Positions 15,818-39,556 of a stretch of DNA of 64,000 bases are shown here, piece after piece. The stretch lies in NCBI GenBank assembly GCA_043803105.1, contig JAZDKJ010000012.1:1-64000 (forward strand), read 5' to 3'. The notes beneath the pieces were generated by a model that saw only the letters and a list, made by a program, of their open reading frames with translations, was not told the origin of the DNA and ran no database searches. Position numbers and translations under genes: made by a program. The DNA is from Candidatus Woesearchaeota archaeon. GTDB lineage: Archaea > Nanobdellota > Nanobdellia > Woesearchaeales > JAZDKJ01. Numbering within the stretch: the first letter of the stretch is position 1; each line of letters opens with the position of its first letter.

Positions 15818-15818
15818 G

Positions 15819-21989: not shown

Positions 21990-22451
21990 ATGAATAAAAA
22001 AGAATTGCTTATAATCAGTTTGTTGCGCGAGAACGCCAGGGAGTCCTTGACCAATATAAGCAAGAGAACAAAAATCCCGATCTCCACAATCTATGAAAAG
22101 CTCCGTAACAACTACGGTAATATCATTCAGCGCCATGTTGCTCTCATAGACTTTGCACTTCTGGGTTATAATGTTAGGGCTAACATTATGGTTTCCACTC
22201 AGAAGGATTTGCGCCTGCAGCTGAAGGATTATCTGGTCAAACAGTTTGAGGTCAATTCTGTCTACAAGATAAATAACGGTTTTGACTACCTTGTTGAGGG
22301 AGTCTTCAAAGATATAAGGGAGGTTGAGGATTTTGTTGAAAGGCTTGAGGAGCAATTCAAGATAGACAAGAAGCAGATTAATTATATCATTGAGGACCTT
22401 AAGCGCGAGTCTTTCATGGCTGATCCTAAGACAGTGGAGATGTTCCATTAG
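21990..22451 (+). CDS. Lrp/AsnC family transcriptional regulator
   Basis: IISLLRENARESLTNISKRTKIPISTIYEKL HTH; IDFALLGY; VYKINNGFDYLVE. Confidence 0.85.
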   Translation: MNKKELLIISLLRENARESLTNISKRTKIPISTIYEKLRNNYGNIIQRHVALIDFALLGYNVRANIMVSTQKDLRLQLKDYLVKQFEVNSVYKINNGFDYLVEGVFKDIREVEDFVERLEEQFKIDKKQINYIIEDLKRESFMADPKTVEMFH

Positions 22452-22461: not shown

Positions 22462-22508
22462 ATTTAAATACCAGCTGGATTCAGGAAAATTCAATACTAA
22501 ATGAGGTG
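22462..22508 (+). promoter_or_regulatory. TATA-like box and Shine-Dalgarno for the second pilin operon
   Basis: ATTTAAATA at 22462-22470; GAGGTG at 22503-22508 before ATG 22516. Confidence 0.5.
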
Positions 22509-22515: not shown

Positions 22516-22779
22516 ATGAAGAAGGCTCAGGGCATTTCAATGAATGTCATAATTATCGCTGCTCTCGCGCTTCTTGTCCTGGTTGTGCTTTCAGTAATTT
22601 TTCTGACAAGGGCCGGCATTTTTTCAAGGGAAACCATGAATTGCCGCCAGCAAGGAGGCCTTTGCGTGTCTTCCGCTGATTCCTGCCCGGAGGGGCATCC
22701 GATTGCTTATAACAGTTGGAAGTGCCTGAACTCAGATGGCAAAGTGAACAACGATGAGAAGTGCTGCATCACAGGATAG
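22516..22779 (+). CDS. Small pilin-like protein with six-Cys C-terminal module
   Basis: MKKAQ-GISMNVIIIAALALLVLVVL; CRQQGGLC...C...C...CC. Confidence 0.8.
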   Translation: MKKAQGISMNVIIIAALALLVLVVLSVIFLTRAGIFSRETMNCRQQGGLCVSSADSCPEGHPIAYNSWKCLNSDGKVNNDEKCCITG

Positions 22780-23026
22780 GAAAGCGCAGTCTATTTCGCT
22801 TAACACGATTATTATTGCTATTTTAGCCCTGCTTGTTCTTGTTGTCATTGCTCTTATTTTTTCTGGAAAGATTAAGGTCTTTGGTACAGAAACAAGGAGT
22901 TGTGCCAATGTTGGCGGCACTTGTGAGACTGCCTGCGAGTCAAATGAGGCTGAGCAGGGTAACACAAATTGTGTTAACAAGTGCTGCATTGACATCTACA
23001 CAACTGCTGACGATAACAACGACTAG
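22754..23026 (+). CDS. Small pilin-like protein with six-Cys C-terminal module
   Basis: RKAQ-SISLNTIIIAILALLVLVVI; CANVGGTCETAC...CVNKCC. Confidence 0.8.
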   Translation: MRSAASQDRKAQSISLNTIIIAILALLVLVVIALIFSGKIKVFGTETRSCANVGGTCETACESNEAEQGNTNCVNKCCIDIYTTADDNND

Positions 23027-23065: not shown

Positions 23066-23194
23066 ATGTCGACCTTTAAGAAGAAAGGCTTTCAACTTCT
23101 TTCAGAGAATATGATGTATATTCTTCTTGCTTTTTTTGGTTTTATTGCCCTTCTTACAGCCCTATACTTTATCCTCAGGAGGTTTTTAGGTTGA
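23066..23194 (+). CDS. Minimal 42-aa pilin-like peptide (missed by the ORF track)
   Basis: MSTFKKKG-FQLLSENMMYILLAFFGFIALLTALYFILRRFLG; fills the gap; its stop overlaps the next start. Confidence 0.65.
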   Translation: MSTFKKKGFQLLSENMMYILLAFFGFIALLTALYFILRRFLG

Positions 23195-23946
23195 TTAAAG
23201 GAAAATCAGGTCTTGAATCTCAAACAGTGGTTATTTTGTGTGTTATTCTGGCCTCTGCTGTTGTATTAATGTTCACAGTTAAAAGTTTTGGTGAAACTAT
23301 TACCAACAGCGGCGACATCGAGGCCTGCAGGCTTACTGTCATTACTGCTGCCAAAGTAAAGACTTTTGGCGAGACAATAGGCACAAAATGCCCAAGGCAC
23401 GAGCTTACCCTCACTTTGAAAGATGCAACAGTCGGAACATCAATTAACGCAGATGCAATTAAGGAAAAGATTGCTGAAGAGATGAGGACATGCTATTACA
23501 AAATGTCTGGAAAACAGCAGCTTAATCCTTATGCTGAGAGCAAGATGCCTTTTGAAAAACAGAATATCTGCCTGGTCTGCTCAGAGATATCTTTTGCCCC
23601 TGACCTTCAGAAAAAGCTTCCGGAAATCAATAACTTTGGTGCTTTCCTGAAGGATTCTAACTATTCATTCATGCAGGTCAAGACAGCAAATGTCCTATGG
23701 GCTATTTTTCCAACAACCAAGCAGTACAAAACTACTGAGCTTGGCACAGATTCATTTTCCACAAAGAATGCTTACTACTTGATTTACAATACCGAATCCC
23801 CTGATTGGTGGAGGTCAGATAATCTTTTTAACAGGGCACTTCGTGTTGCTCTTGGAGATTTTGCCGTCAGTGACTCTTATTCAGTGATGCTGCTCATGCC
23901 CTCTTCTGACATTGGCACTTTGCAGTGCACATCTTATATAGGCTAG
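23191..23946 (+). CDS. Pilin-like protein
   Basis: TTG start after AGGAGG; KGKSG-LESQTVVILCVILASAVVLMF; paralog of the next gene. Confidence 0.7.
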   Translation: MIKGKSGLESQTVVILCVILASAVVLMFTVKSFGETITNSGDIEACRLTVITAAKVKTFGETIGTKCPRHELTLTLKDATVGTSINADAIKEKIAEEMRTCYYKMSGKQQLNPYAESKMPFEKQNICLVCSEISFAPDLQKKLPEINNFGAFLKDSNYSFMQVKTANVLWAIFPTTKQYKTTELGTDSFSTKNAYYLIYNTESPDWWRSDNLFNRALRVALGDFAVSDSYSVMLLMPSSDIGTLQCTSYIG

Positions 23947-23950: not shown

Positions 23951-24808
23951 ATGAAGAAAGCTGAGCTCAAACTGATTGTCATCTTGGTACTTATGCTTGT
24001 TTGCATTTCAGTTATGATTTTATTTGAAGGTTCTGTGTCCAAACTTTTTGCAAGTAGCATTGATTCTACTGGCTGCAAGGCTAATGTCATTGAGCATGCT
24101 GCTGCCCACCTTAAGATTGTTGACCTGTCCTCAGACATTACCTGCCCTGCAGAGAACATCACCCTAAGATCCCAGGACCCAAAAGCCCAGCTTGCTGACT
24201 CAATGTACAAGTGCTGGGATAATTGGGGCAAGGGCAAGCTTGACCTTTTTGCTAATGATGGTGTTTATTGTGTGGTCTGTTCCTGGGTTAAATCCAAGGA
24301 TAAGTCCATGACCCTTACCGGTTTTGACAACTATCTGTCTACAACAATAATTCCCGGAAGAGGTATAACCTATCTTGATTTTCTTAATGGTTACGAAACT
24401 CCAAGGGGAAAAGAGGTTGTTGGCAACCTTCTCGAAAAGCAATCACAGAATCCCTCTGTCATTTTCGGTGACAAGACCTATTCAGTGATTTTTGTTTACG
24501 CGCGCGGTGATGAATTTATCAAGAAATTGTTGGTAACCTCTGCCAGCACTGTGGGCCTTCCTGTGATTATTGCTGGCGGCATAATGGTTGTTGCAGGTTT
24601 ATCAGGGGTTGGTATCCCTTTTGTGTTGTCTGCAGGAGCCTTGACCGTTGCAGGGTCAGGGACAGCACTCCTTGGAGGTATAGAAGCGTGGTATGAAGCA
24701 AAGTTAAGGATGGAAAGGCCTGACCACGTTGCCTTTGTTGCCTTAAGGGAGTACAATTCCGGCCAGTTGGATGAGCTCGGCTGCAAATCCCTGCCTGCAA
24801 AACAGTAA
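23951..24808 (+). CDS. Pilin-like protein with a Gly-rich hydrophobic hairpin
   Basis: MKKAE-LKLIVILVLMLVCISVMILF; shares CP...A..M..C...C.VCS with 23191..23946. Confidence 0.7.
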   Translation: MKKAELKLIVILVLMLVCISVMILFEGSVSKLFASSIDSTGCKANVIEHAAAHLKIVDLSSDITCPAENITLRSQDPKAQLADSMYKCWDNWGKGKLDLFANDGVYCVVCSWVKSKDKSMTLTGFDNYLSTTIIPGRGITYLDFLNGYETPRGKEVVGNLLEKQSQNPSVIFGDKTYSVIFVYARGDEFIKKLLVTSASTVGLPVIIAGGIMVVAGLSGVGIPFVLSAGALTVAGSGTALLGGIEAWYEAKLRMERPDHVAFVALREYNSGQLDELGCKSLPAKQ

Positions 24809-24989: not shown

Positions 24990-25517
24990 GTGAAGAAAGC
25001 AAGTATCTTGTGGGAGCCAATAATGAAGTGGATTATTGTTCTAGTTGTAGTTGCATTTGTTTTCATTTTCTTGCTGCCAAAAGTTTTGTACGGTGCAGAC
25101 AAGGTCTTGTCCTTAATTGGGGTTTCAGGCTCAAAATGCTCTTTTACTGCTGCAAAATGCGCAAACTGTCTTTCAATAACCTCTTCTGTGCCCTCAACAA
25201 TAGAGTTCAGAAAGTCTGACAATTATGCTTCAACCTCTTGTGAGATTTCTTCATCAACTCTTGCTTTATCCTTTAATGAGAACTTGAAATCACAGAAGGT
25301 GGACATCCTGTCCTGTTGCGGCAAAGCCCCAAAAATCAAAACAGATTGGACAGGCTCAGCAAAACAGCTTACAATATCTTTGGACAAGAATTCTCTCAAA
25401 TTCTCAGGCCTGACTTCTAACTGTTATTATCGCCTTTCTTTCGGCAAAGATTTAATAAGCGAGACCGGCAAGAATATAAGCACTGACCAGGAGGTTATTG
25501 TTTTCAAGACAAAATGA
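24990..25517 (+). CDS. Pilin-like protein with C-terminal Ig-like (Big_5-like) domain
   Basis: GTG start after GGTGA; KKAS-ILWEPIMKWIIVLVVVAFVFIF; LSFNENL...LTI...YRLSF...FKT. Confidence 0.65.
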   Translation: MKKASILWEPIMKWIIVLVVVAFVFIFLLPKVLYGADKVLSLIGVSGSKCSFTAAKCANCLSITSSVPSTIEFRKSDNYASTSCEISSSTLALSFNENLKSQKVDILSCCGKAPKIKTDWTGSAKQLTISLDKNSLKFSGLTSNCYYRLSFGKDLISETGKNISTDQEVIVFKTK

Positions 25518-25792
25518 AGAAGGCTGACCTTTCCATGAACATGATTATTCTTGCAGTGCTTGGCATAATCCTTTTGATTGTCCTAGTTGCGTTGTTCACT
25601 GGCAAGATTAGGATTTTCAGCAGTAATGTGCTTGGCTCCTGCGCAGAGCAGGGAGGCACCTGTGCACAACAAGGTAAATGTGATGAAGGCAAGTATATTG
25701 CCTGGGCTACTGGCTGCAGTTGTTATCCTCCTGATGACAAGGATTGCAAAGACAAAAAGCTCGGCCAATGCTGTCTGCAGGCTCTAAAATGA
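25514..25792 (+). CDS. Small pilin-like protein with Cys-rich module
   Basis: MKKAD-LSMNMIILAVLGIILLIVLV; CAEQGGTC...CC. Confidence 0.8.
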   Translation: MKKADLSMNMIILAVLGIILLIVLVALFTGKIRIFSSNVLGSCAEQGGTCAQQGKCDEGKYIAWATGCSCYPPDDKDCKDKKLGQCCLQALK

Positions 25793-26019
25793 AAAAAGCT
25801 ATGGAAATGCTTGGCACAATAATAACTTCGGTACTTGTGATTGTGGCTATTTTTGTCATGATATTGCTTTTCACAGGAAAGATTGGTATAACAAAAGAGA
25901 ATCTTTCAAGCTGCACTACAAAGAATGGAGAGTGTGTGAAGACAGCTGAAGAATGTTCAGGAGGCACTGCCTTGTTCGATTGCCCGTCTTCAAAGCCTGT
26001 ATGTTGCATTAAACCTTAG
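25789..26019 (+). CDS. Small pilin-like protein with six-Cys module
   Basis: MKKA-MEMLGTIITSVLVIVAIFVMIL; C-x6-C-x6-C-x8-C-x6-CC. Confidence 0.8.
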   Translation: MKKAMEMLGTIITSVLVIVAIFVMILLFTGKIGITKENLSSCTTKNGECVKTAEECSGGTALFDCPSSKPVCCIKP

Positions 26020-26024: not shown

Positions 26025-26471
26025 GTGATAACCGTGTTTGGAAAAAAAGGTGATGGTGTACTCTGGGAACAAATACTGTATGCTGTGCTTGTAGTTGTAG
26101 CGATTGCTGTGATGTTGTATATTTTTGGACCTAACGCAGCCAGAGCCAGCACCAGCTTTAATAAATACTTTAATCAGGCTGAGCTTACGCAATGTGCTTT
26201 GAAAGGTAGCAATGATAAAGATAGGATTGAGCTATACTGCAATCCAAACAATAAGGATTATCCGTATCCTGTTAGCTGCGATCCGTGCCTTGGCGCAACA
26301 AACACATACGACATGGATGGTGATGGTATGCCTGACCAGTGCGAAAAAGACAAAGGCCAGGATGTTAAAAAGACAGAATGCCTGCATGTCAACAAAGCCA
26401 AAAAAACACAATGCTGCATGACCACAACTCCCTGCAATAATCTTAAAGCAGTAACCATTACCTGCACCTAA
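26025..26471 (+). CDS. Pilin-like Cys-rich protein with a DxDxDG Ca-binding motif
   Basis: KKG-DGVLWEQILYAVLVVVAIAVML; DMDGDGMPDQC. Confidence 0.7.
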   Translation: MITVFGKKGDGVLWEQILYAVLVVVAIAVMLYIFGPNAARASTSFNKYFNQAELTQCALKGSNDKDRIELYCNPNNKDYPYPVSCDPCLGATNTYDMDGDGMPDQCEKDKGQDVKKTECLHVNKAKKTQCCMTTTPCNNLKAVTITCT

Positions 26472-26472: not shown

Positions 26473-28488
26473 ATGCCTCTTTACAAGAAAGCCTTCAGTT
26501 CTGTGATGATGGAGGTTGTTGTCCTTATCCTGGTGGTAGTTGTCATCCTAGCTTCCGGAAAATGGACTTATTCTATGGCATCCTCTCTGTTTGGCAACAA
26601 GCAAGGCACTGTGGAGAGCTTTGAGATTGTCTCAAAGAGTATGCAGGCTCTTGCCAATAGTCAGACTGTTTTTGCCTCTGACAATGCAAACCTCATGATT
26701 TTGCAGGATAGTTATGTGATTGTTGGTTTTGACAAAACTGAGCAAAAGTCTGTGAGTTCCTGCGAGAGCCGCGAGGCCCAAAAGCCTCCTGTCTGTGCTG
26801 GTAGCGCCTGCATCTGCCTTTTCAAATTTGATGCACTTGATAAGCCTGTGCAGTGCACAATCCTCTATAATGTTGACCGGGTCTTCACAATCAATTATGA
26901 TTCTGATTACAGCAGCCGTTTTAAGGTTCCTGAAGCCTATAGCTTCAACTCCCTAGGCTCACAAGCATACATTTTCAATGACAACTACAAATCATCTTTT
27001 TCCTCCACAATTCAAGGAGTGTCAAATCCTGCAGTTAGCTATTCGCATCTTTTCCTCTTTGGCAATTGCCCGAATGAGCATATTTCCAGAAGTTTTGCAG
27101 CCCATAACTTTTACATTGAGAAGTTTGTCGACGCCACGCAGAAGAAGACCTATTTCCTTGTTGCCTATGCTGATGAATTTACCATTGCGCACTCTGAGGA
27201 GATAAGAAAGAAGTTCGGCTCAAAGAGTCCTGCCGAGTACGAAAAGCTGATTTCCGAGCTTCTTGCGTCAAAAAATCCTGAGCAGGCTGTTGCAAAGTTC
27301 TCTGAGTTCAAGGCAGCTTATCCGCTCGCAAATCTTTCAAATGCAACTTACCAAAAGCTTTTGCAGTACCTTCTTCCAAAGACCTCAAAAGAGGAGTTGG
27401 CCATAGCCTTGCAGATTGTTGATGATTATCTCAAGTTCTTTCCTAATGATGACAAGACTCAGGAGATGCTCTATAATCAGGGCTTGTTTAACATGCTTCT
27501 TGATGATGTTGATGCAGCTAAGGAGTCATTTGACAAGGTTATTGAGACTAATGCCAAGTCTGAACTGGCAAAAAAGGCTGAAGACATGCTGGACGCTGTC
27601 TCAATCATAAAAGAAGATCCCGGCCTCACAGGCGAGTCAAGCCAGGCTACAATTAAGAGGTTAACTGAGGAGATTTCATCAGAAAAGGATGATTCCAAGC
27701 TCGGCGAGCTCCATTATGGGCTTGGTGTTGCTTACCTTGTCGCAAATATTAGGTCACGCTCAACCATTTATCCAAGAGATCTTGCAGTAAACGAGTTTGC
27801 TACAGTAATCTCAAAATATCCTGTAAGCGAGTATGCTGATGTTTCTTGCTACAATCTCGGCCTTGTCTACAGCTCTTTGGCTGAACAAAATGAAAAAGAC
27901 CATCAAAAGGCTTGTGAATATTTCGCTAAAGTTTACCAGGATTACCCCTTTGGCAAGTCTGTCTTTAATGAGGACTTGAGCACTCTTGCTGCTGACAAAA
28001 TCAAAAGGTTTGACTGCAATGTGGACGAGTATGATACATTTGATTCTTCTTCATATACAGAACCTGCTCCTTCTGACGTTTCAACTGATGTCTTAGACCC
28101 AAAACTTCAAGGCCTCACTCCTGAGACTGTTGAGGACGTCAAGAAATTGCAGACTGCATTGAATGCTAAGTTTGTTATTCATGAGGGCTACGCAACCACC
28201 GGCCATCTGCCTGGCTCACTTCATTATGTAGGCAAGGCAGTTGACTTTCACATCACTGGAACAAGCCTAACATATCTCGAGCAGATCGATGCAATGAATC
28301 AAGCACTCATTGGTTTAAAAATTGCAGACAACGGCTTTGGTATCTATCCTGATTGGCGTAATCCTGGCTTTCACTTCGATACCCGTGGCAAGGTTGCAAG
28401 ATGGGGCTGGCTCAGCAAGCATGAGGTCTCTTATCAGGCTGCTCTGGATTACGCAAAGGCGCATGCACCAGCAACTGCTGTTGGCTAG
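26473..28488 (+). CDS. Pilin-like N-terminus, TPR repeats and C-terminal M15-family Zn peptidase (peptidoglycan peptidase)
   Basis: KKA-FSSVMMEVVVLILVVVVIL; TPR-like motifs (LYNQG...AKESFDKVI, YNLGLVY...YQDYP); SLHYVGKAVDF (SxHxxGxAxD) and GFGIYP...FHFDTR. Confidence 0.85.
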   Translation: MPLYKKAFSSVMMEVVVLILVVVVILASGKWTYSMASSLFGNKQGTVESFEIVSKSMQALANSQTVFASDNANLMILQDSYVIVGFDKTEQKSVSSCESREAQKPPVCAGSACICLFKFDALDKPVQCTILYNVDRVFTINYDSDYSSRFKVPEAYSFNSLGSQAYIFNDNYKSSFSSTIQGVSNPAVSYSHLFLFGNCPNEHISRSFAAHNFYIEKFVDATQKKTYFLVAYADEFTIAHSEEIRKKFGSKSPAEYEKLISELLASKNPEQAVAKFSEFKAAYPLANLSNATYQKLLQYLLPKTSKEELAIALQIVDDYLKFFPNDDKTQEMLYNQGLFNMLLDDVDAAKESFDKVIETNAKSELAKKAEDMLDAVSIIKEDPGLTGESSQATIKRLTEEISSEKDDSKLGELHYGLGVAYLVANIRSRSTIYPRDLAVNEFATVISKYPVSEYADVSCYNLGLVYSSLAEQNEKDHQKACEYFAKVYQDYPFGKSVFNEDLSTLAADKIKRFDCNVDEYDTFDSSSYTEPAPSDVSTDVLDPKLQGLTPETVEDVKKLQTALNAKFVIHEGYATTGHLPGSLHYVGKAVDFHITGTSLTYLEQIDAMNQALIGLKIADNGFGIYPDWRNPGFHFDTRGKVARWGWLSKHEVSYQAALDYAKAHAPATAVG

Positions 28489-28530
28489 ACCAAAAGCTTT
28501 AATAAATGCGCTTTCTGTTTCTTGCCTTAA

Positions 28531-29589
28531 ATGAAAAAAAGAGGTTTTGGTCTTAGAGCCAGTCTTGACCCTACTCACCATCTTTATCTTGTGTTATTTG
28601 AGTTGTTTCTGGTTGCAATAGTCTTCATTGCCTTGATGTCTTATGTCAAGTCTTTGCAGGAAAATACATTGCTTGAGAAGAGCTATCTTTCAAAAGACCT
28701 GGCCTTGCTCTCAACTGCAATCTACTCCAGTCCCGGTGATGTTTTTTACGTCTACACTCATCCAAAGATTGGCTTGCAGCGCTACAATTTCATTTTCCAG
28801 CAGGGCTCTGTAATAGTTTCTGATGCATCTTCCTACAAGATTTCTTATCCTTATGGCCTAAGCCCTAAGATAAAGGCTTCTTCAATCAGCATTGACAAGC
28901 CGATTGGCATCCTTTTCTCTCTTTCCGATTCTAATCTTTACATCACTGCCTCAACCCTTGAACAAACCATCTCATGCCCTGATGTGGAAACTAAGGCTTC
29001 TGGAGATAGGATTGTTGCTATAGATCCTGGCCATGGAGTTGACACAAGGCTCTCTAGTCCGACCTCAGCCTCAGGTGCAGGCTCTGTCTTTGGCACTTTA
29101 ATCGAGCAGGACTTGACCAAAAATATTGGCTCAGCCCTCTCTTACCAGCTCAATCAGGCCGGTGTTAAAACCATCGTTACTAGTTCAGGTGACAGTTTTG
29201 TTTCAATGCAGGAGAGGCTTTCCACTGTTTCCAGGGATGATGTTTCGTTGGTCATTAGCCTGCATACAGGCAATGAATTGCCTCCATTCAACGGGATTCG
29301 CGCCTTCATCTATTCATCCTCTTCCAAGTCATTGCAGAGCGAAAAGCTTGCCTGCCTTGTTTTGAAGCAGTTTGCCCTCAAATTTCCAGCGATTACCTCT
29401 ATTGAGTTGAACAGGCTCGATGCCTCAGCACTTGAAGGTATCGATAATCCAATGCTTGTTTTGTATGGCGATAAGCCTTCTGTGCTGATCGAGATAGGTA
29501 ATCTCCAGCTTGAATCAGGCTTGTTGAAAGAACAATCACCTTCGATTGCAGAGCCTATTGTGAAGGCTATCCAGAGTTACTATGAATAA
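28531..29589 (+). CDS. Pilin-like N-terminus fused to N-acetylmuramoyl-L-alanine amidase (Amidase_3)
   Basis: IVAIDPGHG, IEQD, ISLH, PSVLIEIGNL: three Zn ligands and catalytic Glu present; MKKRG followed by a TM helix. Confidence 0.88.
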   Translation: MKKRGFGLRASLDPTHHLYLVLFELFLVAIVFIALMSYVKSLQENTLLEKSYLSKDLALLSTAIYSSPGDVFYVYTHPKIGLQRYNFIFQQGSVIVSDASSYKISYPYGLSPKIKASSISIDKPIGILFSLSDSNLYITASTLEQTISCPDVETKASGDRIVAIDPGHGVDTRLSSPTSASGAGSVFGTLIEQDLTKNIGSALSYQLNQAGVKTIVTSSGDSFVSMQERLSTVSRDDVSLVISLHTGNELPPFNGIRAFIYSSSSKSLQSEKLACLVLKQFALKFPAITSIELNRLDASALEGIDNPMLVLYGDKPSVLIEIGNLQLESGLLKEQSPSIAEPIVKAIQSYYE

Positions 29590-30217
29590 GAAGAGTGAGA
29601 TTTCAGATTACATGATTGCCTTTGTTCCTAGGTTTCTCTTTCTTGTTGTGATGCTTGTCAGCATTTATTTTCTTGTGCACACATATGTAAAGACTGAAGT
29701 TGACACCTTTGATGCAGAGTCTGCTCTGTTTGTTGACCGCCTGATTTACTCAAGGGATGGGTTATGCCAGATGTCCCAGGGCCAGGTTACTCCAGGAATT
29801 ATTGATGCTTCAAGGCTTCAATACCTTGAATCCAACCTGACCAAAAATATTGTCTATCCTGATTCACGGCACATTGCTGCAAAAGTTTCGATTAAGGATA
29901 TGGGCTCTGCTGAGCTTTTTTCTTTTTATTACAACAAGGATTGGTTTGATAGGTGGATTGTGCTCTCAAAGTACTCAGGCAGCAGCGCATCCACTGTTTC
30001 CAGGAGGAGCCTTTACTTCCTGTTGAAAGGAAAATCTGAGCTTGATAAGCTCTTGTTGAAGAACCAGATTTCCGGGCTTCAGTCCGACCCGTTGTTTGCC
30101 TCAAGCCAAGAGCTTGTGCCATTGCAGAAGCAGCTTGATGAGCTTTCCAAAAAGCCTAAAGATGATGCTATCATTCCAGTTTGGCTGGAAATTATTGTGG
30201 TGATGCCAAATAGTTAA
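29582..30217 (+). CDS. Pilin-like protein
   Basis: MNKKSE-ISDYMIAFVPRFLFLVVMLVSIYFLV. Confidence 0.7.
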   Translation: MNKKSEISDYMIAFVPRFLFLVVMLVSIYFLVHTYVKTEVDTFDAESALFVDRLIYSRDGLCQMSQGQVTPGIIDASRLQYLESNLTKNIVYPDSRHIAAKVSIKDMGSAELFSFYYNKDWFDRWIVLSKYSGSSASTVSRRSLYFLLKGKSELDKLLLKNQISGLQSDPLFASSQELVPLQKQLDELSKKPKDDAIIPVWLEIIVVMPNS

Positions 30218-30749
30218 GAGAGCTCTTCTTTCACCAAATCTTCTTGATTTTTATGCATACATAGCTTTCTGCGTAGTCCTGATCATTTTTTTCCTCCTGT
30301 TTTCAATAAGTCCGACCAAATCCATTGAAAGCATTTCCTCAAAACAGATTTCAACAGATTCTGGCCTTATCCTGATTAATCTGCTGAAGACTCCTGCCTC
30401 TCAGAGTAGCAGCGTCTCTGATATTCTGCTCACCGCGTCAGATTCTGATGATTTTAAGTCATTTGCATCATACGCAAAGCCTGTTATTGAGCAATTTGTT
30501 GCGTCTAACTTCGATGATTGCTGCTATGAGTTATCGGTTGTTAAGGCAGGCTCAGCGATTTTTGTGCTGACCACGGAAAATTGTGAGCTTTCAAAATTAA
30601 ATGAGGTCTCTGCGTCAGTCAGTGTTCCGCCGAAAGACCCGAAAAAGGCAGGCCTTGATGTTGTGCTAACCCTTTACAGGTCTTACCTTGTTGGCGGAAA
30701 CATTGGTGCTACAAGGATGCAGAGTTCAGTTTGCAAGTACAAAAAATGA
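30210..30749 (+). CDS. Pilin-like protein with probable ATA start (the track reports only 30564..30749)
   Basis: Frame open from 30204; (I)VKRA-LLSPNLLDFYAYIAFCVVLIIFFLLFSI; GGTGA 6 nt upstream of ATA. Confidence 0.65.
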   Translation: MVKRALLSPNLLDFYAYIAFCVVLIIFFLLFSISPTKSIESISSKQISTDSGLILINLLKTPASQSSSVSDILLTASDSDDFKSFASYAKPVIEQFVASNFDDCCYELSVVKAGSAIFVLTTENCELSKLNEVSASVSVPPKDPKKAGLDVVLTLYRSYLVGGNIGATRMQSSVCKYKK

Positions 30750-32908
30750 AAAAAGCCTTTGTTTTCAACATCAGCTTGGTTTTCATAACTACTATTGTGT
30801 TAATGTCCATCTTCCTTGTCCTCCAGTCCAAGAGAAGCTCTCTTGAGCTTGACAATCTTGGTTCAAGGCCTCTTGACCTTATCAGTTCTTATGAGTCAGG
30901 GGAGTCTATTAGGTTTTTCATAGAGCAGTCCTTAAGGAATAGCTTTGGACAGTCTGTTTTTGATCTGGCTTCAAACGGTGGTTTTGTAGAGTATAGCAAG
31001 TGCGGCTCTTATCTTGGTTATCAGCTCTGGCAGCCAGAATGTTTTCCAAATCTTGATTCAGAGTTCAATAAGCGTTTGCAGCTTGTTTTTGGAGACTTCT
31101 TGCTCACTTACAAGCAGGAGTTGCCTCTCTCGTATTCTTCAGCCATCGAATCTAAAGACCCCCTCAAGGTTTCTGCCTTCCCTAACACGCCAATCACCAT
31201 TGATGTCTTCACTAAGAAGCTCACCTCAGTGAAGCCTGGTTTTTGGGCTAAGCTTGTTGCAAAAATATCTGGCGCAACTTTGCCTGAGCCTTCTGATTTG
31301 AGCAAAGCCCCCAAGTTTGTTTCAAAGAATAGCAAAGGAGTAATGAACAATATCTATATTTTATACAGCAGCTCTCTTTCAAGGTACACAATTGATTATC
31401 CTCAGGTGTCAAAGTCATTGATCGCAGGCGTGATTGCTCAGGAGTCTAAAGGAGACCCATTTGCTATTGGCACTCTTGGCACCAGTGCAGGCCTGACCCA
31501 ATTTGAGCTTGCAACAGCCAAAGGTTTTCCACAGGTTTTCAAGAAATTGACTGATTGTGCGTGTTCCGGCTCTAAGTGTAAGCTTAGTGCCTTGTGCAAC
31601 CCTTCTAATGATGACAGGTTAAATCCAGATATTTCAATAAAGGGTTCTTTTGTTTACTATGCATCGCTATTAAATAGCTTTTCAAAGTTCTCTTCAGCCA
31701 CAGAGTTTGCAGTTGCTTCTTACAATGGAGGAGAGTCTGTCATCAGGAAGGCCATTTCATCAACAGGCTTGTCCAATCCTTCATGGCCACAGGTTTCTGC
31801 TGCTTTGCGGCCTGAGCTCATTACATATATATCATCTGAGTCTGCAAGGCTTCGTAAAGTCGAGATTATAAGGAACTATGTTAAGGCAGTAATGGCCTAT
31901 AAATCAGAATATGAGTTGCTTGACCAGGCTCAAAAGCAGCAGGCTTACGAAGAGAAAAAAAAGGACCTTGCTAAGACTCATGATTGCTGTTTCTGCTCGC
32001 AAAAGTGCGGTTTTGATTGCTCTCTTGTTCCTGTCCCAGAATCTCAGGCCTGTGGCCCCCTTTCTATTGGCATTGGTGTTAATTGTGATGTATCTTCTTG
32101 TTCCCTTCCGCAGACCTCCACTTCAACATACCAATTTAGGCCTGTAGTGGCTGCCTCGTCAAATTATAATCTGACAACCTACCAGCGCATCCAATACCTT
32201 CTTACCTCAAATAACGGACTCCTTGCCAATCTTGCAACCTGTTCTTCTGCCAAGCCTTTGGCAGTTTGCCTCGCTCCCTTGTCATCAGTTATGTCAGAAA
32301 AAGACCCTAGCCTAAAGTGGGGTTTTGACCTTGATTGTGATTCAAATGCAGAGATGGTTTTTGACAGGTTTGCTGAAAATCTTCTTTTGTGTTCAATGTC
32401 CGCTACAGATAATTGTGTATGTAATCTTGCAATGGACATTGGTAAGCAGATGGTCCCTGACGGCACTTTTGAAATCAAGCTCTCAAATTCTGGCTCAACC
32501 ACTGTTCTGCAGTCAGACAAGGTTAAGGACTTCACTGTACCTGTTTTATCAAGCATTTTCCTGAGGTCCATGACATCATCTGAAAAAGCAGATTTCAAAT
32601 ATGACATAAACTACAGGAAGGGTGTTTTCTACAAGGCAAGCCTTAACACTGCAAATTATGTTTCTGTTTTGGGCAAAAATGTGAGGATTGTGAAGCAGGG
32701 AAAGGCCTTGACATTTGTTGATGATGAGGTTTTTGCTGCATCATTTGCCTCAATGCCCTCTTGCACTGTTCAGAAGGATACTCTACGAGTTTGCGTCTCA
32801 AGGCTTATTTCAGGCAAGCCTGAGCAGGTTTATGCATTCAACCCATTGACAGGCAAGGTCGAGCCTCGTAACCTGGTGTATAGGTTTGCGATTAAAGCCT
32901 CTGTTTGA
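30746..32908 (+). CDS. Pilin-like protein with an inserted lytic transglycosylase (SLT/GH23) domain
   Basis: MKKA-FVFNISLVFITTIVLMSIFLVL; IAQES (catalytic Glu), GLTQ, RLNPDISI, ASYNGG, RNYVKAV. Confidence 0.88.
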   Translation: MKKAFVFNISLVFITTIVLMSIFLVLQSKRSSLELDNLGSRPLDLISSYESGESIRFFIEQSLRNSFGQSVFDLASNGGFVEYSKCGSYLGYQLWQPECFPNLDSEFNKRLQLVFGDFLLTYKQELPLSYSSAIESKDPLKVSAFPNTPITIDVFTKKLTSVKPGFWAKLVAKISGATLPEPSDLSKAPKFVSKNSKGVMNNIYILYSSSLSRYTIDYPQVSKSLIAGVIAQESKGDPFAIGTLGTSAGLTQFELATAKGFPQVFKKLTDCACSGSKCKLSALCNPSNDDRLNPDISIKGSFVYYASLLNSFSKFSSATEFAVASYNGGESVIRKAISSTGLSNPSWPQVSAALRPELITYISSESARLRKVEIIRNYVKAVMAYKSEYELLDQAQKQQAYEEKKKDLAKTHDCCFCSQKCGFDCSLVPVPESQACGPLSIGIGVNCDVSSCSLPQTSTSTYQFRPVVAASSNYNLTTYQRIQYLLTSNNGLLANLATCSSAKPLAVCLAPLSSVMSEKDPSLKWGFDLDCDSNAEMVFDRFAENLLLCSMSATDNCVCNLAMDIGKQMVPDGTFEIKLSNSGSTTVLQSDKVKDFTVPVLSSIFLRSMTSSEKADFKYDINYRKGVFYKASLNTANYVSVLGKNVRIVKQGKALTFVDDEVFAASFASMPSCTVQKDTLRVCVSRLISGKPEQVYAFNPLTGKVEPRNLVYRFAIKASV

Positions 32909-32950
32909 TTATACAAAATTATATAAATGTCTCAATAACCCTTCACTCTT

Positions 32951-33952
32951 ATGATTCAGATTCCGCTGGCAGATGTTTTGTCAAAGATCAAGGAGAAGAC
33001 CGGTCTTTCTGATGAAGAGATTAATTCCAGGATTGCATTGAAGCTAAAACAGCTCTCAGGCCTTATCTCCAGGGAGGGAGCTGCCCACATTGTTGCAAAT
33101 GAGCTCGGCGTCAAGCTTTTTGAGAATCTTTCAGGTAAGCTTCAGATAAAGAACATTCTTGCTGGCATGCGCGATGTTGAGACCATTGGCAAGGTTCTTT
33201 TTGTGAACGAGCCTCGTGAGTTCCAGTCAGAGAACCGCTCTGGCAAGGTTGGTTCCATTGTTATAGGAGATGAGACTGGTACTATTAGGATTGTCTGCTG
33301 GGGCAATCAGGCAGACAAGATGTCTTCTGTTGTTCAGGATAACATTGTCAAGATTAAGGGTGGCTATGTGCGAGAGAATAATGGCATAAAAGAGGTTCAT
33401 CTTAATGACCGTGGCCTGTTGATGGTCAACCCCAAGGGTGAGACTGTTGGCGAGGTTAAATCTCAAGCTCTTGAGAAGCCTGCCAGAAAGACAATAAAGG
33501 AACTGCAGGAGAACGATAATAATGTTGAGGTCCTCGGTACAATTGTCCAGGCCTTTGAGCCGAAGTTCTATGAGGTCTGCCCTCAGTGCAACAAGCGCCT
33601 GAAGCAGTCTGATTCAGGTTTTGTATGTGACCAGCATAGCTCTGTTGTTCCAAGTTATGCCTATGTTCTTAACCTCTTTCTTGACGACGGTACAGAGAAC
33701 ATTCGCGTTGTTTTCTTCCGCGACCAGGTTGAAAAGCTTGTCAGCAAGTCAAAGGAGCTGATGCTCTCAATGCGCGACAAACCCGAAGAGTTTGAGACTT
33801 TGAAGACAGAGCTTCTTGGGAACATCATTAAGGTCTCCGGCAGGGTTACAAAGAACCAGATGTTTGACCGCCTTGAGCTTGTCGCAAGGTCTGTTGACCC
33901 TTCCCCTAATCCTCAGGAAGAGATAGATCGCCTTAAGCCAAATGATGGCTAG
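32951..33952 (+). CDS. rpa: Replication protein A (OB folds plus zinc finger)
   Basis: GLISREGAAHIVANELGV; IGDETGTIRIVCW; CPQCNK...CDQH; LDDGTENIRVVFF. Confidence 0.88.
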   Translation: MIQIPLADVLSKIKEKTGLSDEEINSRIALKLKQLSGLISREGAAHIVANELGVKLFENLSGKLQIKNILAGMRDVETIGKVLFVNEPREFQSENRSGKVGSIVIGDETGTIRIVCWGNQADKMSSVVQDNIVKIKGGYVRENNGIKEVHLNDRGLLMVNPKGETVGEVKSQALEKPARKTIKELQENDNNVEVLGTIVQAFEPKFYEVCPQCNKRLKQSDSGFVCDQHSSVVPSYAYVLNLFLDDGTENIRVVFFRDQVEKLVSKSKELMLSMRDKPEEFETLKTELLGNIIKVSGRVTKNQMFDRLELVARSVDPSPNPQEEIDRLKPNDG

Positions 33953-34406
33953 GACCCACGCTGCCTTCGGCCTTTTGTGTGCCTTGTGTGCCTTGTTTTT
34001 CATCAGTTTCTTCAGTAAGGACATGATCATTCCAGTAGTTGCTGTCATCTTTGCTTTGGTGCCTGACATCGACACTCCAAAGTCTTTTGTTGGCAGGCGC
34101 CTCGGCCCAATTTCTTATGTCATCAATTTCCTGTTCGGTCACCGCAGGCTTTTTCATGCTGTTTGGCTCCCCACATTGCTTTTTGTTGTGTTTGCAAGAT
34201 TCAATCTGTCTGTGGCTATTGGTATTGCCATTGGTTATCTTTCCCACCTTGTGCTTGACTTGTCTAATGACCGAGGCATTCAGCCCTTATATCCATTAAG
34301 ATTTCACATAAGCGGACCATTTAAAACCGGAGGCTTTTTCGAGGTTTTGATTTTTATTGTAATTGTATCTTCTGATTTTCTCATTTTATTGAGAATCTTT
34401 GGCTAA
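33942..34406 (+). CDS. Membrane-bound metal-dependent hydrolase (YdjM-like)
   Basis: TH...PDIDTPKS...GHRRLFHA...SHLVLD. Confidence 0.85.
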   Translation: MMARTHAAFGLLCALCALFFISFFSKDMIIPVVAVIFALVPDIDTPKSFVGRRLGPISYVINFLFGHRRLFHAVWLPTLLFVVFARFNLSVAIGIAIGYLSHLVLDLSNDRGIQPLYPLRFHISGPFKTGGFFEVLIFIVIVSSDFLILLRIFG

Positions 34407-34440
34407 TCTTTATAAGATATTATTAGCATGCCAACTTATT

Positions 34441-35187
34441 ATGAAAGGTTTAATAGTTGCTGTTGGTGAAAAGGACTCTATCAGCAGAGACAGGACATCC
34501 GAAATTAGGGGGTTATCAGAGTACGCCAGTATGCCTGTTGTTAAGCATATTCTGATGAGCTTTGACAAGATAGGCGTGAATGAGACACTTTTGCTTGTGA
34601 ATCCAAATCACAAAAGGCAGTATGAACAGGCACTGTCTGGCTATAATGGTGTAAGACTAGAGGAAACAAGAATCCCTTCATCTGATGTAACCTTTTCTTA
34701 TATTGATGGTTTCGGTCGCTTAGGTACAGGAGACCACATTATTGCATCTCCTGATGATTGCCTTTTTACGTTTTCTCTTGAAGGTTTGATGAGCAGGTTC
34801 AATGGCATTGCAGATACTGGCATGGGTGTTATGGCAGTAAGAAATAAAGTTCATATTCAAGATGATAATTTTGCAGAATCTAATTACGGTTGGTGCACTG
34901 TTGACAAAGCGGGCAGGTTTACTGAAGTCAAATCTTCTTTTCATGACAAGAACAAGCCTTGGCCAGAGAACCGCGCTTTTGTGACTCTTGACCTCAGCAT
35001 AATCCATAAGGATATGATATGCTCTTTGCTGAAAGATATCCAGAAACCCAACATCCAGGGCGAGCAGCTTATCAGGAAATACTCAACACAGTTCTATGCT
35101 TGGGTAATTAACGAAGGTGCGTGGTTTGACATCGGCAAGCCCAGCTCAAGAAAGAAAGCTGAAGAGTACTTTTCTTCTTTACATTAG
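34441..35187 (+). CDS. Divergent sugar-phosphate nucleotidyltransferase-like protein
   Basis: MKGLIVAVG start, PVVKHIL, YGWCTVD, WFDIGKP; canonical GxGTR motif degenerate. Confidence 0.55.
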   Translation: MKGLIVAVGEKDSISRDRTSEIRGLSEYASMPVVKHILMSFDKIGVNETLLLVNPNHKRQYEQALSGYNGVRLEETRIPSSDVTFSYIDGFGRLGTGDHIIASPDDCLFTFSLEGLMSRFNGIADTGMGVMAVRNKVHIQDDNFAESNYGWCTVDKAGRFTEVKSSFHDKNKPWPENRAFVTLDLSIIHKDMICSLLKDIQKPNIQGEQLIRKYSTQFYAWVINEGAWFDIGKPSSRKKAEEYFSSLH

Positions 35188-35330
35188 TTGCCACTTATCC
35201 ACTGGACATTCACGCGTAGCCTATTTAAGCCATTTCCTTCTGTTATATTGCATTGACTCCAGCCCCTGGGGCCCTAGTAGCTCATAACTAAGGGGGTTTG
35301 AAACAAAACGCGAAAGCAATGGAGATTAAA

Positions 35331-35609
35331 ATGAAACAAGAAAATAAGGTGGGGCCTGAAAAAAGGTTTAGTGCTGGTGCAGTTAACGCCAACATCTGGA
35401 GAAATGAGGTCCCTAACAAGACCGCAGGAACTTCTGGGTATTATACAATAAGCTTGCAGCGAAGCTATAAGGACAAGGCTGGCAAATGGCAGAACTCTAG
35501 TTCTATGCGCATAAACGACCTGCCAAAGGCTGCTTTAGTCCTTAGTAGGTCTTACGAGTACCTGGTTCTTAAGGAGAACCAGGAAGATACTGCGGATTCT
35601 GCGTATTAG
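35331..35609 (+). CDS. Small conserved protein, possible ssDNA-binding fold
   Basis: PEKRFSAGAVNANIWRN...ISLQRSYKDKAGKWQ...NDLPKA; directly upstream of radA. Confidence 0.55.
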   Translation: MKQENKVGPEKRFSAGAVNANIWRNEVPNKTAGTSGYYTISLQRSYKDKAGKWQNSSSMRINDLPKAALVLSRSYEYLVLKENQEDTADSAY

Positions 35610-35671
35610 AGGTGAAAAAAATGACAAAAGCTTTATTAATCGCCAAGACTATCAGGCAGGAAGGTGAAGTG

Positions 35672-36646
35672 ATGGTAAAGAATGATCGCAAGGAATTGTC
35701 TGTTGAAGACTTGCCCGGTGTTGGCCAGACCACAGCAGAGAAATTAAGGGAGACTGGTTACACAAGTCTTATTGCTGTTGCTGTTGCCTCTCCTGCTGAA
35801 CTTGCAGAGACAGCTGGTGTAACCGACGCTGCAGCAAGAAAGATGATTGCCTTTGCACGCTCTTCTATGAGGATGGGTTTTGAATCAGGCACTGACCTGT
35901 TGAAGAAGCGTGAGCTGGTAATTAAAATCCCTACTGGCTCTGCAGAATTTGACAGATTGATGGGTGGTGGCTTTGAAACTGGAGCAATTACAGAATGCTT
36001 TGGTGAGTTCGGCTCAGGCAAGACGCAAATTGCCCACATGTTGTGTGTTAATTGCCAAAAGCAGGACCCTGAATCTTATGCAGTATATATTGATACAGAG
36101 AACACTTTCCGCCCTGAGCGAATAATTGAGCTTGCCAAGGGCGCTGGCCTTGATGAGCATCAGGTTCTGAGCCATATCAAGGTTGCAAGGGCTTATAATT
36201 CAGACCATCAGATGCTCCTGGCAGAAAAGGTTGAGGATATTATCACAAATCAGAAGCTCAATGTCAAGGTTGTCATTGTTGATTCCCTTACCGCACATTT
36301 TAGGGCTGAGTTTATTGGTCGTGGTACCTTAGCTGAAAGGCAACAAAAGCTCAATCGCCACATGCATGTTTTATTGAAGCTTGCAGATGTGAACAACACT
36401 TGCGTTTACGTAACTAATCAAGTCATGGCAAGGCCCGACGTATTTTTCGGCGACCCGACCCAGGCCATTGGCGGTCATATTGTGGCCCATGCCTCTACCT
36501 TTAGGATTTATTTAAGGAAAGGCAAGAAAGGCTCAAGGGTTGCAAAGCTTGTTGATGCTCCTAATCTGCCTGACGGCGAAGTTGGCTTCTATGTTACAGA
36601 AGGCGGCCTAAAGGAGCTTTCGGTAACAAAGCTTGCAGAAGAATAA
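35672..36646 (+). CDS. radA: DNA repair and recombination protein RadA
   Basis: EDLPGVG HhH; GEFGSGKTQ; YIDTENTFRPER; IVDSLTAHFRAEF.GRG.LAERQQKL. Confidence 0.96.
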   Translation: MVKNDRKELSVEDLPGVGQTTAEKLRETGYTSLIAVAVASPAELAETAGVTDAAARKMIAFARSSMRMGFESGTDLLKKRELVIKIPTGSAEFDRLMGGGFETGAITECFGEFGSGKTQIAHMLCVNCQKQDPESYAVYIDTENTFRPERIIELAKGAGLDEHQVLSHIKVARAYNSDHQMLLAEKVEDIITNQKLNVKVVIVDSLTAHFRAEFIGRGTLAERQQKLNRHMHVLLKLADVNNTCVYVTNQVMARPDVFFGDPTQAIGGHIVAHASTFRIYLRKGKKGSRVAKLVDAPNLPDGEVGFYVTEGGLKELSVTKLAEE

Positions 36647-39480: not shown

Positions 39481-39556
39481 GGCAGGGCCTTCGTATGAGT
39501 TAATCGAAGGTTTTCGAGCGGAAGATATTTAAACGCAATTTCCCCCAACTTAATAA

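Follow-up and report, generated by a model that had tools for sequence, protein, structure and literature searches.

The window, a 64-kb stretch of DNA forming the beginning of contig C12 in the genome of a Woesearchaeota archaeon (1.56 Mb, 13 contigs, 96.5% complete), carries an operon of about 13 co-oriented, abutting or overlapping genes at 22.5–32.9 kb, in which three proteins join a pilin-like N-terminus to a murein hydrolase domain. The operon encodes four small Cys-rich proteins of about 77–92 amino acids and two paralogues of about 250–285 amino acids (p251 and p285), followed by products of about 175, 148, 671, 352 and 211 amino acids, a gene of 181 codons and a protein of 720 amino acids (Table 1). 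The proteins of 671, 352 and 720 amino acids contain, respectively, a LAS/M15-type zinc peptidase domain, an Amidase_3 domain and an SLT (lytic transglycosylase) domain, each behind an N-terminal core that we call M15_N (residues 1–250), Ami_N (residues 1–150) or SLT_N (residues 1–215). Directly downstream of the operon, Pfam identifies genes for RPA, a YdjM-like protein and RadA with an HHH_5 domain. A preliminary description of this DNA had pointed to the three hydrolases; the positions and motifs it assigned to them were all correct, and the open reading frames (ORFs) lie where it put them.

The amidase protein matches Amidase_3 (PF01520) over residues 162–348 with an E value of 3.2e-18 (66.8 bits against a cut-off of 27; profile positions 1–173 of 174), and H168, E192, H245 and E321 are all present; as in AmiC/CwlV-type enzymes, these are presumably the His-Glu-His zinc ligands and the catalytic Glu. 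The 720-residue protein matches SLT (PF01464; glycoside hydrolase family 23, GH23) over residues 223–346 (E 2.4e-11, 43.7 bits against a cut-off of 21.3, profile positions 9–109 of 117; 46.4 bits in a six-frame search). It has, in this order, the motifs AQES (31436–31447), GLTQ (31490–31501) and SYNGG (31718–31732) at residues 236, 254 and 330, presumably the E-S motif with the catalytic Glu, GLxQ and AYNxG that mark family 1 lytic transglycosylases. The earlier assignment of the third enzyme to M15 stood as regards clan and catalytic residues and not as regards family. No M15 family in Pfam scored above its cut-off with the whole 671-residue protein (best Peptidase_M15_2, E 0.009, 16.2 bits against 27), the domain alone reached 19.7 bits with Peptidase_M15_2, also below the cut-off of 27, the NCBIfam model MepK matched the whole protein at E 0.035, and phmmer searches of PDB sequences with single queries, either this domain or the SLT region, yielded no useful match. 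A search of 1.84 billion representative proteins with the last 141 residues gave 373 homologues at E ≤ 1e-3, mostly single-domain proteins of 140–160 amino acids. In an alignment of 60 of these homologues with the window piece, H584, D591 and H634 are invariant in all 61 sequences (within SLHYVGKAVD, 28216–28245, and FHFDTR, 28369–28386). Matches to Peptidase_M15_2 were found for 26 of the 61 members, to Peptidase_M15_3 for 16 and to the 'endolysin' family PHROG 894 for 32, and the 61-sequence profile matches the LAS-fold N-terminal domains of hedgehog proteins (E 4e-5) and, at E 0.49, the T5 L-Ala-D-Glu peptidase. On this profile and the His-Asp-His triad we file the domain as a zinc peptidase of the LAS/M15 clan. 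Amidase_3 enzymes cut the bond between N-acetylmuramic acid (MurNAc) and L-Ala, SLT enzymes the glycan strand, and LAS/M15 enzymes the stem peptide or cross-link. Judged by family, the three window enzymes would jointly cut every bond class needed to open murein, and the claim of three complementary hydrolases with intact catalytic residues agrees with both the Pfam matches and the residue checks.

The 671-residue protein has three parts: the core (residues ~1–250) with the conserved Cys motif KPPVCAGSACICLF, a TPR region (~250–500) with matches to TPR_6, YfiO and YbgF-like models, and the peptidase (~540–671). The TPR region (27223–27972) resembles the Gram-negative envelope proteins YbgF/CpoB (E 7.8e-13) and BamD (E 2.5e-11), both below curated cut-offs; the likeness could be generic or could hint at what this region binds. 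Two further SLT ORFs lie outside the operon, at C6:317415–318581 (+; 388 amino acids) and C8:54951–57950 (−; 999 amino acids), and have a longer polar leader ahead of the hydrophobic stretch (..KSG/PFKLLALTTAAIG.. and ..QQKA/ALFVLAFFILSLG..; here and below a slash stands before residue +1).

Table 1. Features of the hydrolase operon and its borders in the 64-kb window
Feature	Position	Strand	Evidence or remark
Lrp/AsnC-type regulator	21990..22451	+	Pfam AsnC_trans_reg, HTH_24; directly upstream of operon, context
Small Cys-rich pilin-like protein 1 (MKKAQ/GISMNVIIIAALALLVLVV...)	22516..22779	+	ORF; no Pfam match
Small Cys-rich pilin-like protein 2 (..DRKAQ/SISLNTIIIAILALLVLVV)	22754..23026	+	ORF
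p251, conserved pilin-like or membrane protein, paralogue of p285	23191..23946	+	No Pfam match
p285 (MKKA/ELKLIVILVLMLV..), conserved operon member	23951..24808	+	Motif in 44/57 orthologues
Pilin-like protein, probable GTG start (VKKA/SILWEPIMKWIIVLVVVAFVFIF)	24990..25517	+	No orthologue by phmmer in related loci
Small Cys-rich pilin-like protein 3 (MKKA/DLSMNMIILAVLGIILLIV)	25514..25792	+	ORF
Small Cys-rich pilin-like protein 4 (MKKA/MEMLGTIITSVLVIVAIFV)	25789..26019	+	ORF
p148, pilin-like, Cys-rich (..GKKG/DGVLWEQILYAVLVVVAIAV)	26025..26471	+	12 orthologous ORFs
M15_N subunit with TPR region and LAS/M15-type zinc peptidase, 671 amino acids	26473..28488	+	Profiles, alignment
Best Pfam stretch of LAS/M15 domain, residues 581–644	28213..28404	+	Peptidase_M15_2
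Ami_N subunit with Amidase_3, 352 amino acids	28531..29589	+	Pfam, residues, AF2
Amidase_3 catalytic domain	29014..29574	+	Pfam and profile search of genome
p211, conserved pilin-like subunit without added domain	29582..30217	+	66 ORFs in related loci
Unlisted conserved small gene (IVKRA/LLSPNLLDFYAYIAFCVVLIIFF..)	30210..30749	+	Open frame 30204–30749
SLT_N subunit (MKKAF start) with SLT domain and conserved C-terminal region SLT_C, 720 amino acids	30746..32908	+	Pfam, AF2, orthologues
SLT catalytic domain	31397..31768	+	Pfam; catalytic Glu in AQES 31436–31447
RPA, context	32951..33952	+	Always directly downstream of operon

All three hydrolase proteins start with the same kind of N-terminus, MPLYKKA/FSSVMMEVVVLILVVVVILA in the M15_N protein, MKKA/FVFNISLVFITTIVLMSIFLVL in the SLT_N protein and MKKRGFGLRA/SLDPTHHLYLVLFELFLVAIVFIAL in the amidase protein, where LRA/S aligns with KKA/Q or KRG/Q of the orthologues. 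The neighbouring operon genes carry this [K/R]-[G/A] motif and helix as well. In six orthologue groups from related loci a short basic stretch ending in K/R-G/A is followed by about 20 hydrophobic residues (for example MKKRG/QLVYKALVVAV.., NKKA/IVLEALGRIVIV.. and NKKA/VLILIPAIIG..). Under a rule of [KR][GA] and then a hydrophobic 18-mer within 10 residues, the motif was found in 88/118 Cys-rich proteins, 44/57 p285, 52/61 Ami_N, 51/66 SLT_N, 29/52 M15_N and 36/64 p211 orthologues. This amounts to 56–85% per group versus 24% of the N-terminally hydrophobic ORFs genome-wide (80 of 331, from about 1629 crude ORFs). Of the 80 rule-fitting ORFs, 24 are on this contig and about 17 cluster at 15–47 kb of the window, and because of this clustering the motif is not attributable to chance. 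Gln is the commonest residue at +1 in three of eight groups (Ami_N, SLT_N and the Cys-rich proteins, there in 44 of 88), a feature that we take to be a mark of Epd-type prepilins cut by EppA. The pilin-like N-termini and the pilin-like operon context seen in the preliminary description are therefore, as this conservation in the orthologue groups indicates, well founded. The N-termini are likely class III signals, and incorporation of the operon proteins into a filament is plausible.

The structure of the cores was predicted with AlphaFold 2 (AF2). The Ami_N model (residues 1–150; predicted local distance difference test score, pLDDT, 89.6) consists of a helix at residues 14–66, kinked at residue 45, and seven strands that form a beta-sheet, and as modelled it has the general build of a pilin. 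In the SLT_N model (pLDDT 77), two helices, of which the N-terminal one is long, accompany a small alpha-beta domain. When 48,161 chains were compared with VIA-align, Ami_N had no match at Z ≥ 5, with the pilins EpsI (4.1) and PilA4 (4.0) below the trust range, and SLT_N had nine chains at Z ≥ 5, led by inositol monophosphatases (Z 6.1). A complex prediction restricted to the globular parts of Ami_N (38–150) and p211 (38–211) scored 0.13 versus a mark of 0.32, which counts neither for nor against a complex.

Assembly genes of a type IV filament (T4F) are present elsewhere in the genome, unlinked to the operon. They comprise the only Peptidase_A24 prepilin peptidase gene (contig C5, 54.4 bits) and, on contig C10, a T2SSE ATPase gene (C10:16920–18449) that adjoins two T2SSF platform genes (C10:18437–20355). 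According to the main text of a 2026 survey of these systems (PMC13705601), DPANN archaea keep ATPase and platform genes adjacent and have scattered pilin genes, and system 1, the common type, with two platform genes, includes the Epd pilus of Methanococcales; the layout on contig C10 is that of system 1. The same text proposes that substrate-binding proteins with class III signals functionalise T4F filaments, as in the Sulfolobus bindosome.

Mur_ligase_M had no match in the 96.5%-complete genome and matched in 12 of 14 control genomes. From this gene content, synthesis of murein or of pseudomurein is not predicted for the archaeon, and all three enzymes would therefore act on a foreign substrate. 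Remodelling of the archaeon's own wall was rejected on the same result. The archaeal setting is confirmed by RadA with HHH_5, by RPA and by the nearest public RPA loci, which have identities of ≤73% and are labelled Candidatus Woesearchaeota, Nanoarchaeota or Candidatus Nanoarchaeia archaeon (some labels are evidently wrong).

Amidase_3 occurs in 16 of 61 genomes of the order, each genome from a different family. The surroundings were fetched for 13 of these matches, and 10 of the 13 keep the neighbour order of the window (Cys-rich proteins, p285/p251, homologue of the 671-residue protein, amidase, p211, SLT homologue, RPA, YdjM, RadA). Because loci should not be chosen by the feature under study, a second sample was anchored on RPA; it comprised 80 loci of named public assemblies, together with as much as 10 kb of DNA to either side. 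Genes in related loci were called as plain ORFs from the first ATG, GTG or TTG and searched by phmmer and then with hidden Markov models (HMMs) from the first matches, with N-terminal and catalytic parts queried separately and group membership assigned by HMMs built from the window proteins; the relatives counted are not independent samples. Ami_N was found in 62 ORFs versus 29 for the amidase-like part, and many Ami_N proteins have only 132–160 amino acids. The 52 ORFs with M15_N mostly have 160–400 amino acids and no peptidase domain, the LAS domain of the window being confined, among the RPA-anchored loci, to the window and its congener. SLT_N was present in 69 ORFs, p211 in 66 and the small Cys-rich family in 119. 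Wherever an RPA-anchored Woesearchaeales locus that was read extended far enough upstream, it kept the gene order (small Cys-rich proteins, p285, M15_N, Ami_N, p211, small gene, SLT_N).

The SLT_N core model detects 269 of 301 genomes of the order (262 of 294 with seven unpublished genomes left out), 199 of the 222 high-quality genomes and 196 of 216 when counted by genus. At E ≤ 1e-5 it was found in 99 of 121 genomes of a phylum-level sample, which was drawn entirely from this order and from other orders of its class. In these other orders, 14 of 14 loci have a minimal operon beside RPA, with Ami_N of 120–140, SLT_N of 233–288 and M15_N of 165–212 amino acids (in 10 short-form loci, where found). 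One locus from another order (L122; 6630–8678, +) encodes an M15_N-type protein of 682 amino acids with SLT at residues 341–475 and M23 at residues 537–628, in which a different subunit appears to have been armed independently. As far as gene content tells, the operon is old and class-wide, and the hydrolase domains would be later additions, mainly in Woesearchaeales; the ancestral, hydrolase-free operon of the sister orders was probably that of an ordinary adhesion filament.

Within Woesearchaeales the hydrolase domains vary far more than the cores. Pfam counts per group were taken from alignment-mode scans, in which the window protein is member 1 and the matching member is not named. Amidase_3 was detected in 13 of the 65 members scanned of the Ami group, and the M15_N group (54 scanned) had TPR_6 in three members and Glucosaminidase, Peptidase_M15 and VanY in one each. 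The SLT_N/SLT_C group (93 ORFs) contained SLT (13), VanY (12), fn3 (11), Peptidase_M15 (10), Amidase_2 (4) and Peptidase_M23 (4), two matches each to Peptidase_M15_3, 3D, Phage_lysozyme2, Peptidase_M15_2 and SLT_2, and one each to T6SS_VgrG3-like_C, NlpC/P60, Glucosaminidase and Lysozyme_like. When ten long SLT_N orthologues were scanned one by one, the hydrolase domain lay directly behind the core: M23 at residues 216–326, 230–325 and 231–321 (one of these three proteins also has SLT at 404–524), 3D at 252–321 and 353–407, glucosaminidase at 188–295 and SLT at 223–311, compared with 223–346 for SLT in the window. Two of the ten had no Pfam match and one had fn3 only. Nine separate SLT_C ORFs of about 600 amino acids had fn3 or nothing, and a regular-expression search for VanY in 29 SLT_N ORFs of 320–470 amino acids found both motifs in none and either motif in 14. 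Judged by these domain matches, relatives place different hydrolase domains at one and the same point of this subunit, in the manner of exchangeable cassettes. Unrelated murein hydrolase folds are swapped at one slot of a conserved subunit, which we regard as the strongest argument that this slot is selected for peptidoglycan cutting in Woesearchaeales.

The amidase-like domains show a further trend. Many of those in orthologues are probably inactive, going by their aligned catalytic positions, a count that misalignment of divergent sequences may inflate. At least one of the four residues is missing from the amidase-like domain of 17 orthologues (loci L017, L025, L035, L037–L039, L044, L048, L051, L052, L056, L062, L086, L089, L095, L106 and L110). 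The pattern in the alignment suggests repeated decay of amidase-like domains into non-catalytic modules.

We lean towards reading the operon as a surface-display system with class III signals, in which three core subunits carry murein hydrolases that act on bacteria at contact. Transcription of the ~13 genes would start from a promoter behind the Lrp-type regulator. The observed K-K-[A/G] motif and hydrophobic helix would insert each product in the membrane, the single Peptidase_A24 would cleave the products, and the one T4F set of the genome, with its ATPase and two platform proteins on contig C10, would assemble a filament or a short pseudopilus. The small Cys-rich proteins may serve as bulk subunits, with M15_N, Ami_N, p211, the small gene product and SLT_N forming a complex similar to that of minor pilins. 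Hydrolase modules held outside the archaeon would then open bacterial peptidoglycan at contact, and the opened wall may lead to attachment, membrane access or lysis. The conserved gene row and its swapped enzyme ends point to an apparatus devoted to attack on bacteria or to feeding on them.

The preliminary description had likewise proposed that a pilus or pseudopilus presents these enzymes to bacteria, with the archaeon as a putative parasite or predator of bacterial cells; the conserved cores and swapped hydrolases favour that proposal, but other results weigh against it and against our reading. In the window, the operon and its flanks encode neither an assembly ATPase nor a platform protein or prepilin peptidase. 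No Pfam or NCBIfam pilin family matched any of 10 operon proteins scanned at E ≤ 0.1, Foldseek found no match in the PDB at E ≤ 0.001 for the Ami_N or SLT_N model, and the pilins that VIA-align aligned with SLT_N (PilX 5.2, GspK 4.8, PilV 4.4) are tied with unrelated folds in the noise band. A Pfam scan of the three hydrolase proteins for peptidoglycan-binding modules (LysM, PG_binding, SPOR) found none. Only 9 of the 28 other rows of the amidase-domain alignment keep all four residues of the H-E-H-E set (two rows are halves of a gene split by a stop codon). Apart from the 682-residue protein with SLT and M23, the operons of the other orders are hydrolase-free, and wall cutting is therefore not the ancestral role. 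An enzyme borne on a pilus must also still cross the outer membrane of Gram-negative bacteria.

The lack of assembly genes in the operon and of a significant pilin fold or family match would suit proteins that keep their signals as uncleaved anchors, that is, type II membrane proteins that form no filament, with the cores as stalks and the hydrolases acting at tight cell–cell contact; in the amidase protein of the window, 15 polar residues separate the first KKRG from the helix, which fits this too. We nevertheless judge such anchors unlikely, since six orthologue groups conserve the motif with constant spacing to the helix, at a frequency well beyond that of the genome at large, and Gln prevails at +1 in three of them. 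Moreover, 12–13 consecutive genes of this kind correspond to the layout of a pilin or minor-pilin operon, and a genome that keeps a prepilin peptidase and a complete T4F motor has in the operon proteins their obvious candidate substrates. Contact with a particular host would not be needed if the hydrolases digested murein of necromass to supply an auxotrophic archaeon with amino acids and amino sugars. Peptidoglycan of dead cells has been proposed as an amino-acid source of Pacearchaeota (main text of PMC11537232), and the three enzymes would jointly reduce murein to small fragments. This is quite improbable in our view, given that neither AnmK nor Peptidase_S66 (LdcA) was found in the genome (96% complete), so that the usual route for anhydro-muropeptides is not seen, that tethering at the surface suits contact more than bulk digestion, and that a cassette-like turnover of hydrolases resembles weapons or phage lysins more than housekeeping catabolism.

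Slightly more improbable again is a filament that attaches the archaeon to bacterial walls by hydrolase-like modules which bind peptidoglycan or glycan without cutting it. The loss of at least one of the four metal or catalytic residues in 19 of the 28 other amidase rows, and fn3 in 11 of the 93 ORFs of the last subunit group, would agree with adhesion, but all three window domains keep full residue sets, and M23, SLT, 3D and Amidase_2 of the relatives match Pfam strongly, with E values down to 1e-32. Finally, the three families are typical of bacteria and phages, and the control genomes searched for Amidase_3 and SLT match only in bacteria, as would be expected of a bacterial fragment misassembled or mis-binned into an archaeal contig. 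Yet the G+C content along the window is even (0.40–0.46), the genes overlap or abut archaeal neighbours, the N-terminal halves were found here only in genomes of the Woesearchaeota and Pacearchaeota type, and dozens of independently assembled Woesearchaeota genomes repeat this gene order beside the archaeal genes for RPA and RadA. The synteny leaves a misassembly, which the preliminary description had named as a way for its proposal to fail, a negligible chance.

A broader version of the preferred reading, by which the hydrolases are displayed on a filament and breach bacterial walls, is possible but doubtful: Woesearchaeota and Pacearchaeota would share one ancient T4F organelle, the tip subunits of which were repeatedly armed in Woesearchaeales and breach living bacteria. 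If so, a large part of DPANN diversity would live on bacteria and not on archaea, and the choice of hydrolase would track the wall chemistry of the host. A less likely extension, drawn by analogy with pneumococcal fratricide in competence, is that the adjacency of RPA and RadA reflects capture of DNA from lysed prey. The 42-nucleotide gap ahead of RPA contains a TATA-like TTATATAAA 24–32 nucleotides before the RPA ATG; from this box RPA probably has its own promoter, which argues against the DNA-capture extension. Co-transcription of RPA as a functional link was downgraded once the box had been found. The succession of operon and RPA, usually with YdjM and RadA (window 32909–36646; L034–L135), is seen in Woesearchaeales loci and in most of the 14 loci of other orders.

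At the opposite end of the operon, the Lrp/AsnC-type protein is a possible regulator of it, and a TATA-like TTTAAATA lies at 22463–22470, ahead of the first pilin-like gene. An Lrp/AsnC homologue accompanies the cluster in L022, L035 and L062, upstream of the Cys-rich genes in L035 and L062 and, in L022, at the opposite end, adjoining the SLT_N gene. The small gene of 181 codons between p211 and SLT_N was missed by the ORF lister for want of an ATG, GTG or TTG start; ATA at 30210 is its likely start, and its stop codon shares an ATGA with the ATG of the SLT gene. In L016, L035, L036, L041 and L061 the corresponding gap is filled by orthologues that start normally, and the window copy either uses a rare start codon or contains a sequence error. 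Clusters of p211 in the ESM Atlas are archaeal only and mostly labelled Woesearchaeota or Nanobdellota; the Atlas leads DUF7287 and DUF7288 (scores 0.83 and 0.77; template modelling score, TM, 0.52) are below the bar of the tool, and no literature was found on DUF7287, DUF7288 or DUF7289. Cys-rich protein 3 belongs to Atlas clusters of 1377, 357 and 129 members, mostly labelled Woesearchaeota. The Cys-rich proteins (22516–23026 and 25514–26019), whose families are mostly labelled Woesearchaeota, have 6–8 Cys in about 55 residues behind the helix, and the Atlas model of one of them resembles beta-defensins weakly and below threshold (TM 0.38–0.43; own pLDDT 0.57), which is a lead only.

Other pilin-like genes are found on both sides of the operon. 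Downstream of RadA, four tandem paralogues of 506–544 amino acids (37826–44695, +) have no Pfam match and a class III-like start, MVSKRGD/SYTVLYG..VVLVGLIVIFGF. Upstream, the block at 4177–20941 (+) encodes giant secreted proteins of 2509 (with a Cys-rich N-terminus), 1222 (Big_13 and TSP3 repeats) and 1064 amino acids, amid which four small genes (15308–17831) have pilin-like N-termini such as MRRA/VIEVQFNWIFVLIVG and MAKAQ/MEVMGLVVVIILL; this block may be another filament or adhesin set. A family 2 glycosyltransferase at 50741–51971 (+) appears split into two overlapping ORFs of 203 and 212 amino acids, which match the N-terminal and C-terminal parts of the profiles, respectively; this may reflect a frameshift or a genuine division of the gene.

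All DPANN archaea cultivated to date live on other archaea, according to PMC11291902. For bacteria as hosts of uncultured Woesearchaeota and Pacearchaeota, the hint so far has been one lytic transglycosylase domain. The operon described here adds a defined and testable apparatus, class-wide and with subunits that can be expressed, localised and imaged. Its variable slot, with four Pfam families among the 10 long orthologues mapped and further hydrolase families elsewhere in the group, provides a starting point for host prediction from hydrolase type and for the search for new antibacterial enzymes. It also raises the question of how display through class III signals has been put to uses other than pili, archaella and solute binding. 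Surveys that demand a wall-binding domain or a Sec or Tat signal will miss this group of hydrolases or count their signal as lacking.

Lytic transglycosylase domains have been noted in Woesearchaeota and Pacearchaeota since 2013–2015, and large GH23 proteins of this kind are reportedly already described in work by Castelle in 2015; that these archaea have lytic transglycosylases is thus known, and the SLT protein of the window probably belongs to this set. It shares with the published proteins the clade, the SLT domain and a suggested role on walls: large extracellular lytic-transglycosylase proteins that may bind or degrade bacterial walls are described by Castelle 2021 (PMC8204110), and lytic transglycosylases figure as part of a 'vampiristic' lifestyle in Vigneron 2022 (PMC9723730). 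The main texts of both papers report these proteins alone, without an operon, amidase or LAS partners or domain exchange, and the words 'pili', 'pilin' and 'amidase' are absent from them. 'Module 98', a set of 51 co-distributed families of unknown function in the main text of PMC8204110, may overlap this operon. Woldo and Danwoldo of Halogranum salarium (Strock et al. 2025, PMC12352652) are, like the window enzymes, archaeal and aimed at bacterial murein, but are described there as soluble, Sec- or Tat-secreted proteins with a peptidoglycan-binding domain, whereas the window proteins have no wall-binding domain and a class III-like signal. The survey in that main text admitted only proteins with a wall-binding domain and took no signals but Sec and Tat into account; it already lists diverse peptidoglycan hydrolases for Nanoarchaeota, and the words 'pilin', 'type IV' and 'operon' are absent from it. 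In word searches of the main texts of PMC12352652, PMC9723730, PMC13705601, PMC8204110 and PMC11537232, no link of hydrolases with pilin-like signals, a conserved operon or domain exchange was found. The novelty suggested in the preliminary description was borne out to this extent, no fusion to a pilin or class III signal and no such operon having been found in the literature searched, and the combination of pilin scaffold and cassette appears new.

The closest archaeal parallel is the bindosome of Saccharolobus solfataricus together with other class III-signal substrate-binding proteins, which in the main text of PMC13705601 likewise have a non-pilin domain behind a class III signal and helix and use T4F base machinery in trans, their genes lying apart from those of ATPase and platform. 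The bindosome cargo differs, consisting of solute-binding proteins encoded beside ABC transporters and serving uptake, and the words 'peptidoglycan' and 'hydrolase' are absent from that main text. In the operon, unlike the bindosome, the cargo is murein hydrolases on conserved structured cores within a pilin-like gene cluster.

Minor-pilin tips of bacterial type IV pili and type II secretion systems (GspH–K, PilVWX–PilY1) and the modular pilins of Streptococcus sanguinis provide a second comparison. The operon resembles them in its four to five larger pilin-like genes after the small subunits, the last and largest of which has extra modules; SLT_N weakly resembles PilX (98 aligned), GspK and PilV, within noise and with no sequence relationship. 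To our knowledge, murein hydrolase modules do not occur on the pilins of those bacterial systems. Structural parts with wall-degrading ends are found among the evolved VgrG spikes (VgrG3) of type VI secretion and the virion-associated lysins of phage tails, which, like the operon, combine a conserved structural subunit with a variable peptidoglycan hydrolase domain. The likeness extends to individual domains, with T6SS_VgrG3-like_C in one orthologue, Phage_lysozyme2 in two and an endolysin PHROG matched by the LAS family. Unlike VgrG spikes and phage tails, the scaffold of the operon is pilin-like, and the window shows no genes for a sheath or tube. Should tip subunits armed against living bacteria prove to be what this operon encodes, it would be an archaeal, pilus-based counterpart of an evolved VgrG spike or a phage tail lysin.

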